From the NCBI RefSeq assembly GCF_003334355.1, contig NZ_QOWP01000019.1: 64,000 nucleotides of DNA, one strand, 5' to 3'. Shown here piece after piece: positions 38,740-39,072 of the stretch; the stretch's first letter is position 1; every line of letters begins with the position of its first letter. A program made the position numbers and the translations under genes. The notes below the pieces were generated by a model. The model was given only the letters and a program-made list of their open reading frames with translations, searched no databases and was not told the origin of the DNA. The DNA is from Escherichia coli (GTDB lineage: Bacteria; Pseudomonadota; Gammaproteobacteria; Enterobacterales; Enterobacteriaceae).

Positions 38740-38867
38740 GGCTTTTAAACTTTGATGTTAAATGAATTTAACAATTAGATCACACTATGTAACCTATTAG
38801 TTTTTTTAATCTGAGCCATTATAAATTGTCCGTTGAGCTTCTACCAGCAAATACCTATAGTGGCGGC

Positions 38868-39072
38868 ACTTCCTGAGCCGGAACGAAAAGTTTTATCGGA
38901 ATGCGTGTTCTGGTGAACTTTTGGCTTACGGTTGTGATGTTGTGTTGTTGTGTTTGCAATTGGTCTGCGATTCAGACCATGGTAGCAAAGCTACCTTTTT
39001 TCACTTCCTGTACATTTACCCTGTCTGTCCATAGTGATTAATGTAGCACCGCCTAATTGCGGTGCTTTTTTT
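38868..39072 (+). ncRNA. gcvB: GcvB sRNA
   Basis: Begins ACTTCCTGAGCCGGAACGAAAAG, contains the G/U-rich tract gtgatgttgtgttgttgtgtttg, ends with hairpin agcaccgc-ctaatt-gcggtgct plus T8; divergent from gcvA. Confidence 0.95.

Follow-up and report, generated by a model that had tools for sequence, protein, structure and literature searches.

GcvB is a non-coding small RNA (sRNA) of ~200 nt that is encoded divergently from gcvA, is under the control of GcvA and GcvR, and is induced by glycine, according to the literature retrieved for this study. The same literature describes the degradation by RNase E of GcvB that is paired with its sponge, SroC. In a compilation of 2021, which brings together more than 50 validated targets from RIL-seq, CLASH, and MAPS, GcvB represses >50 mRNAs of amino-acid and peptide transport and metabolism via three regions designated R1, R2, and R3.

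In Escherichia coli K-12 MG1655, gcvB lies between ygdD-gcvA and ygdI-csdA. The GcvB of Salmonella enterica has, according to the literature, the same architecture, the same R1, R2, and R3 seeds, and a regulon largely common with that of E. coli; 10 nucleotide differences from E. coli GcvB have been reported. Among transporters that carry serine, the compiled GcvB regulon includes sstT (Ser/Thr permease) and cycA (Gly/Ala/D-Ser), both of which are repressed by GcvB. Regulation of sdaC by an sRNA has been documented for ArcZ, whose pairing takes in the Shine-Dalgarno sequence (Papenfort et al., 2009, according to the papers that cite it). ArcZ is an sRNA distinct from GcvB and is encoded elsewhere (3350577..3350697 in K-12).

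Here we analysed a stretch of 64,000 nt of E. coli chromosomal DNA (assembly GCF_003334355.1, contig NZ_QOWP01000019.1), which is called the window below. A sequence-only reading had placed gcvA and the GcvB sRNA in divergent arrangement in this window and had named sdaC, located ~14 kb from gcvB in the same window, as one of the reported GcvB-controlled messages. Our results indicate that the locus is almost certainly the divergent gcvA–gcvB pair in its canonical E. coli form and that sdaC, on present evidence, lies outside the GcvB regulon.

Identity and conservation of the gcvA–gcvB locus

The entire window was scanned with Rfam, and the GcvB family (RF00022) matched the plus strand immediately beyond the gcvA control region with 199 bits (gathering score, 42; E=1.1e-46). 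The match covered the whole model (positions 1-204 of 204), and its 206 nt are 100% identical to gcvB of K-12 MG1655 (b4443, 2942696..2942901). The divergently oriented ORF matched the NCBIfam model NF008352, 'transcriptional regulator GcvA', over residues 1-304 with 512.8 bits, against a cut-off of 288. Its product is identical to K-12 GcvA, and the name gcvA is also given to this ORF in the annotation of K-12 and other genomes. The neighbouring genes, the 128-bp spacer, the promoter, the seeds, and the terminators are likewise the same as in K-12. The proposed divergent pair thus corresponds to the textbook arrangement, and the distance of 128 bp that had been given between the GcvB start and the gcvA start codon was exact. 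The extent of the RNA had to be adjusted slightly: the RNA is present as described, with its end at 39073 instead of 39072 and a length of 206 nt instead of about 205 nt. The coordinates of all features are summarized in Table 1.

The folded RNA had a minimum free energy (MFE) of −62.1 kcal/mol (z = −3.6), and none of 200 shuffled sequences was as stable. A 601-bp probe around gcvA–gcvB was found in all complete E. coli genomes (5426/5426), with at least 99% identity in 5386 of them. Judging from the E value (1e-46), the z-score of the fold, and the presence in every one of these genomes, the gcvB match did not arise by chance.

Across 401 aligned bases, the sole difference from K-12 was a single nucleotide polymorphism in the control region at 38744, where K-12 has A and this strain has T. 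The position is 5 nt ahead of the gcvA ATG, between the likely Shine-Dalgarno sequence of gcvA and its start codon.

At the nucleotide level, gcvB of this strain is an already known and fully annotated element that is identical to that of the reference strain. GcvB is among the best-studied bacterial sRNAs, and a copy identical to the reference has little significance past its correct annotation. Expression of gcvB, its induction by glycine and GcvA, its dependence on Hfq, and the binding of GcvA would be expected in this strain by virtue of the identity with K-12.

Table 1. Positions of the features of the gcvA–gcvB locus and of sdaC in the window. Strand: +, as presented; −, complementary; a dot, not strand-specific. 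Nucleotide (nt) numbers count from the GcvB 5' end.
Feature	Positions	Strand	Description	Basis
sdaC	24401..25690	+	followed by sdaB; SdaC protein identical to K-12	
gcvA	37822..38739	−	305-aa ORF; LysR-type regulator of the glycine cleavage system, gcvB activator	
Divergent control region	38740..38867	.	gcvA start codon to gcvB +1, 128 bp	sequence
Candidate GcvA recognition region	38774..38809	.		motif positions from sequence
Probable gcvA −10 hexamer	38818..38823	−	perfect TATAAT	read from sequence; promoter role putative
gcvB sigma-70 promoter	38833..38861	+	TTGAGC, 17-nt spacer, TATAGT	consensus scan
gcvB	38868..39073	+	Hfq-dependent small regulatory RNA GcvB, 206 nt	RF00022; identity to K-12 b4443
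Stem-loop 1 (SL1)	38874..38928	+	nt 7-61	Rfam consensus structure; MFE and centroid folds
R1	38930..38961	+	G/U-rich single-stranded seed, nt 63-94	unpaired in Rfam consensus
Stem-loop 2 (SL2)	38962..38978	+	GGTCTG/CAGACC	Rfam structure; folds
Stem-loop 3 (SL3) + T6	38981..39001	+	internal terminator-like hairpin	terminator scan; Rfam structure
R2	39003..39011	+	ACUUCCUGU, nt 136-144	sequence; role from literature
Stem-loop 4 (SL4)	39012..39044	+		Rfam structure
R3	39019..39030	+	seed CCCUGUCUGUCC, nt 152-163, in SL4	SL4 placement from literature
Rho-independent terminator	39045..39073	+	8-bp G+C-rich stem, 6-nt loop, T8	terminator scan; sequence

Promoters and control region

The −10 hexamer of the gcvB promoter ends 6 nt ahead of the 5' end of the RNA, in agreement with the 5' end that was assigned by Rfam. 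On the opposite strand, the TATAAT hexamer suggests that the gcvA transcript probably starts near 38811 and has a leader of ~72 nt. The two promoters would then be arranged back-to-back, and the two transcripts would not overlap, because 57 bp separate the probable gcvA start from gcvB.

On the gcvA strand, the motif CTAAT occurs twice, at 38774-38778 and 38796-38800. LysR-type regulators recognize the pattern T-N11-A, and a box of this type (TTAGTTTTTTTAA) is found at 38797-38809, centred at −65 relative to the gcvB start. All of these motifs sit between the gcvA ATG and the gcvA −10 hexamer. They constitute a candidate GcvA site, placed where a LysR-type activator would be expected. GcvA would bind this stretch, as suggested by the T-N11-A rule and by footprint data.

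Taken together with the literature, these elements are consistent with the following mode of action. Transcription of gcvB would start from the sigma-70 promoter; GcvA would activate this promoter when glycine is plentiful, and GcvR would hold gcvB down. The RNA would expose the three single-stranded seeds, R1, R2, and R3, which together with Hfq would base-pair with >50 mRNAs for the uptake of amino acids and peptides and for biosynthesis, at C/A-rich sites within or close to the ribosome-binding regions. Such pairing would block translation and promote decay of the mRNA. The transcript would end at the intrinsic terminator with its T8 tract.

Architecture of the GcvB RNA

Thermodynamic folding (MFE and centroid) and the Rfam structure agreed on the elements of GcvB. 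The G/U-rich 23-mer gtgatgttgtgttgttgtgtttg, which had been singled out from the sequence as the conserved seed, lies within R1 at 38934..38956 and is indeed unpaired in the Rfam consensus. R1 carries 8 additional nt here (uuguguug) compared with that consensus. According to the computed opening energies, accessibility within GcvB is highest in R1 and R2/R3, and opening of R1 is cheap, with a cost of 1.1-2.5 kcal/mol for 8-mers that end at nt 74-86. The initial eight nucleotides of R2, ACUUCCUG, duplicate the 5' end of GcvB itself. The strong hairpin and the T8 tract that had been described for the end of the RNA were found at 39045..39066 and 39066..39073, respectively.

A 46-codon ORF at 38901..39041 (+) inside gcvB is present in the mechanical ORF listing, and it might code for a small protein instead of, or besides, the non-coding RNA. 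Its ATG is within stem-loop 1, and with no Shine-Dalgarno-like purine run preceding it there is no evident ribosome-binding site. Moreover, the structured RNA family RF00022 accounts fully for the sequence of this region, and the literature on GcvB describes a non-coding sRNA. We consider a coding function of this ORF so improbable as to be negligible and treat the whole of gcvB as a non-coding RNA.

Downstream, gcvB and ygdI are convergent, with 16 bp from the end of the gcvB terminator to the ygdI stop codon (39045..39090). The gcvB hairpin is unlikely to be an efficient terminator for ygdI, because the minus strand reads TACATT after the hairpin and contains no T-run.

Prediction of GcvB targets

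Target prediction was performed with an IntaRNA-like score, in which the duplex energy in 28-nt windows was combined with the opening cost of both RNAs. The GcvB allele of the window was scanned against 206 annotated translation-initiation regions (−150..+50) from eleven K-12 loci; after addition of the remaining genes of the window, the set comprised 228 regions. For the evaluation, 13 validated targets were compared with 210 others, and four further genes of the published regulon table as well as gcvA were set aside.

Eleven of the 13 pre-chosen validated targets (argT, livK, cycA, gltI, ilvC, dppA, oppA, lrp, livJ, argP, and ilvE) were within the top 19 of 206, and validated targets were well separated from the background (AUC 0.967, p=8e-9, 13 vs 210). 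For the top-ranked validated targets, the predicted sites and seeds agreed with the positions in the literature. The two others ranked lower, serA at 43 and sstT at 47 (−10.1 kcal/mol). Two further entries of the published regulon table, hisQ (rank 6) and ilvD (rank 27), came up without having been pre-selected. When the scan was limited to R1, 10 validated targets were within the top 12, with R1 as the GcvB partner in the predicted duplexes. The predicted duplex of cycA (rank 4) was on GcvB nt 137-162, and those of lrp (−14.4 kcal/mol, rank 13) and ilvD fell in nt 140-163. These results support pairing of the GcvB seeds with the C/A-rich sites of the validated regulon.

The gene gcvA itself appeared at rank 3. 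We regard this as an artefact, since its −150..−128 stretch is antisense to the gcvB 5' end; it was rejected as a target because the transcripts would not overlap (probable gcvA start, ~38811).

Two further genes of the window, fucP and rlmD, jointly ranked 16-17 of 228. R1 was predicted to pair at +3..+22 of fucP (30409..30428) and at +17..+36 in the start region of rlmD (ORF 9871..11172, minus strand), with −13.8 kcal/mol in both cases. These energies are in the range of validated targets, and both genes are absent from the published regulon table. The pairings could be chance runs of C/A-rich codons.

Assessment of sdaC as a GcvB target

The suggestion that sdaC is a reported GcvB-controlled message was checked against the literature. 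The 2021 compilation of validated GcvB targets does not contain sdaC, and the examined literature that mentions both GcvB and sdaC does not state that one regulates the other. The sRNA that this literature names for sdaC is ArcZ, with the exception of one older target table, which lists OmrA. In an Hfq-CLASH supplement, among the matches listed, the only sdaC chimera was with guaA and none was with GcvB. The suggestion is not supported, and we regard it as an error, most probably a mix-up with sstT or with the pairing of ArcZ and sdaC. This negative result is useful in that the proposed link between GcvB and sdaC should be dropped.

The pairing predictions gave a similar picture. In the scan with the full RNA, sdaC was at rank 53 of 206 (56 of 228 with the added genes) with −9.95 kcal/mol, and the best site, at −96..−80, paired with R3 (nt 153-172). 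This score is within the background: it was equalled or exceeded by 40 of 210 background genes (sdaC counted) and reached by 10 of 100 dinucleotide-shuffled versions of the sdaC region, and within its window sdaC came only tenth of 50 genes. With R1 only, sdaC ranked 74 of 206, with −7.85 kcal/mol at +1..+26.

A probable sdaC promoter, TTGATT-18-TATATT with a GC-rich discriminator, was found at 24073-24102 and implies a leader of ~291 nt. According to the relevant paper, the sdaC promoter has not been verified experimentally; the description given there fits 24073-24102, and Crp and Lrp sites are also mentioned. A scan of this probable whole leader altered nothing; the best R1 pairing over −292..+60 was −7.7 kcal/mol. 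Seed complementarity in the sdaC leader, which the sequence-only reading had expected, is thus essentially lacking for R1, and by the standard of that reading the proposed link is refuted.

A C/A-rich 21-mer complementary to R1 was noticed further upstream, at 23945-23965 (+) (CACGCGACAAAUAUCAUCACA, CACGCGACAAATATCATCACA). Its match to R1 amounted to −13.0 kcal/mol and was equalled by 4 of 100 shuffles. The 21-mer was rejected as an sdaC target site: with the ppnN terminator (23855-23876) on one side and the probable promoter on the other, it is probably not part of the sdaC mRNA.

We then compared sdaC orthologues. A degenerate pattern of the SdaC N-terminus identified 120 genome loci, of which 114 had usable leaders. 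The −96..−80 stretch aligned well across orthologues. The R3-complementary sequence GAUAGACAG within it was present only in Escherichia among the 114 leaders; one E. coli reference has GATAAACAG in its place, and Citrobacter, Enterobacter, Klebsiella, and others have CTAAACGAA or similar sequences. The median best energy of the 114 leaders against E. coli GcvB was −8.2 kcal/mol. The commonest best site, found in 50 of the 114, was an R1 pairing that starts within +1..+24. This recurrent match in the early codons of sdaC would be expected from the composition of Thr/Gln codons (ACN ACN CAA ACN) alone.

Direct and indirect routes from GcvB to sdaC

It is still conceivable that sdaC, or sdaCB, is a weak direct target that the compilation does not list. 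Pairing with R3 would involve GcvB nt 153-163 and GAUAGACAG at −90..−80 (24311-24321) in a 9-bp duplex, extendable to −96..−80, and the site would be part of the probable leader if the promoter at 24073-24102 is used. Pairing with R1 would involve the C/A-rich Thr/Gln codons at +1..+27. In a few species, the sdaC leader reaches −12.5 to −16.6 kcal/mol with GcvB, and a weak score is no bar to function, because sstT reached only −10.1 kcal/mol and the proven ArcZ–sdaC site only rank 46 of 206 in the same scoring. Nevertheless, the R3 site, at 80-96 nt before the start codon, is remote from the ribosome-binding site, and its motif is restricted to Escherichia; the rank of sdaC is at background level, and the gene is missing from the validated regulon. 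We consider direct targeting very unlikely and leave it a small share of probability, since the scan may miss weak true targets. If sdaC were a weak target, it would be one more gene in a regulon of >50; at the same time, a glycine-responsive sRNA would then have each of the three serine importers, SstT, CycA, and SdaC, under its control.

GcvB might instead act on sdaC only indirectly, by repressing lrp via R3 and thereby affecting repression of the sdaCB promoter by Lrp. Each of the two links has its own support: lrp is a verified R3 target in the literature and was recovered in our scan, and the curated rule for sdaC in the literature is 'Crp AND (NOT Lrp OR leucine)'. Such a route would tend to raise, not lower, sdaC transcription when GcvB is high, a sign opposite to the repression implied by the sequence-only reading. 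It is pieced together purely from the two separate links, however, GcvB may alter Lrp too little for this to be of consequence, and the retrieved literature reports no effect of GcvB on sdaC levels. We regard the indirect route as plausible but rather unlikely, and retain the reading in which sdaC, on present evidence, is outside the GcvB regulon and ArcZ is its documented sRNA regulator.

The ArcZ–sdaC interaction was recovered by the same scoring at −14..−3 (UCCAGGAGAAAU) with −9.55 kcal/mol; the published site is −13..−3, given elsewhere as −13..−2. The ArcZ-pairing block CCUCCAGGAGA (24385..24398) is kept in the sdaC leaders of Escherichia, Citrobacter, Enterobacter, Kluyvera, and other Enterobacteriaceae. 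In Yersinia, Serratia, and Erwinia, a different Shine-Dalgarno context stands in place of CCUCCAGGAGA before sdaC.

Other RNA genes of the window

The Rfam scan of the window also detected a full-length CsrB sRNA at 20328..20687 on the minus strand (RF00018, 380 bits), located between yqcC and syd as in K-12. A match to the sRNA ES036 (CssrF) was found in the tcdA–mltA intergenic region at 42089..42131 on the minus strand, with 46.5 bits against a gathering score of 37.6. Both GcvB-regulated serine transporter genes, sstT and cycA, are at other loci outside the window. Between mltA and amiC, a single gene for initiator tRNA-Met is present at 43559..43635 on the plus strand, whereas K-12 has three tandem copies (metZ, metW, and metV) at this place.
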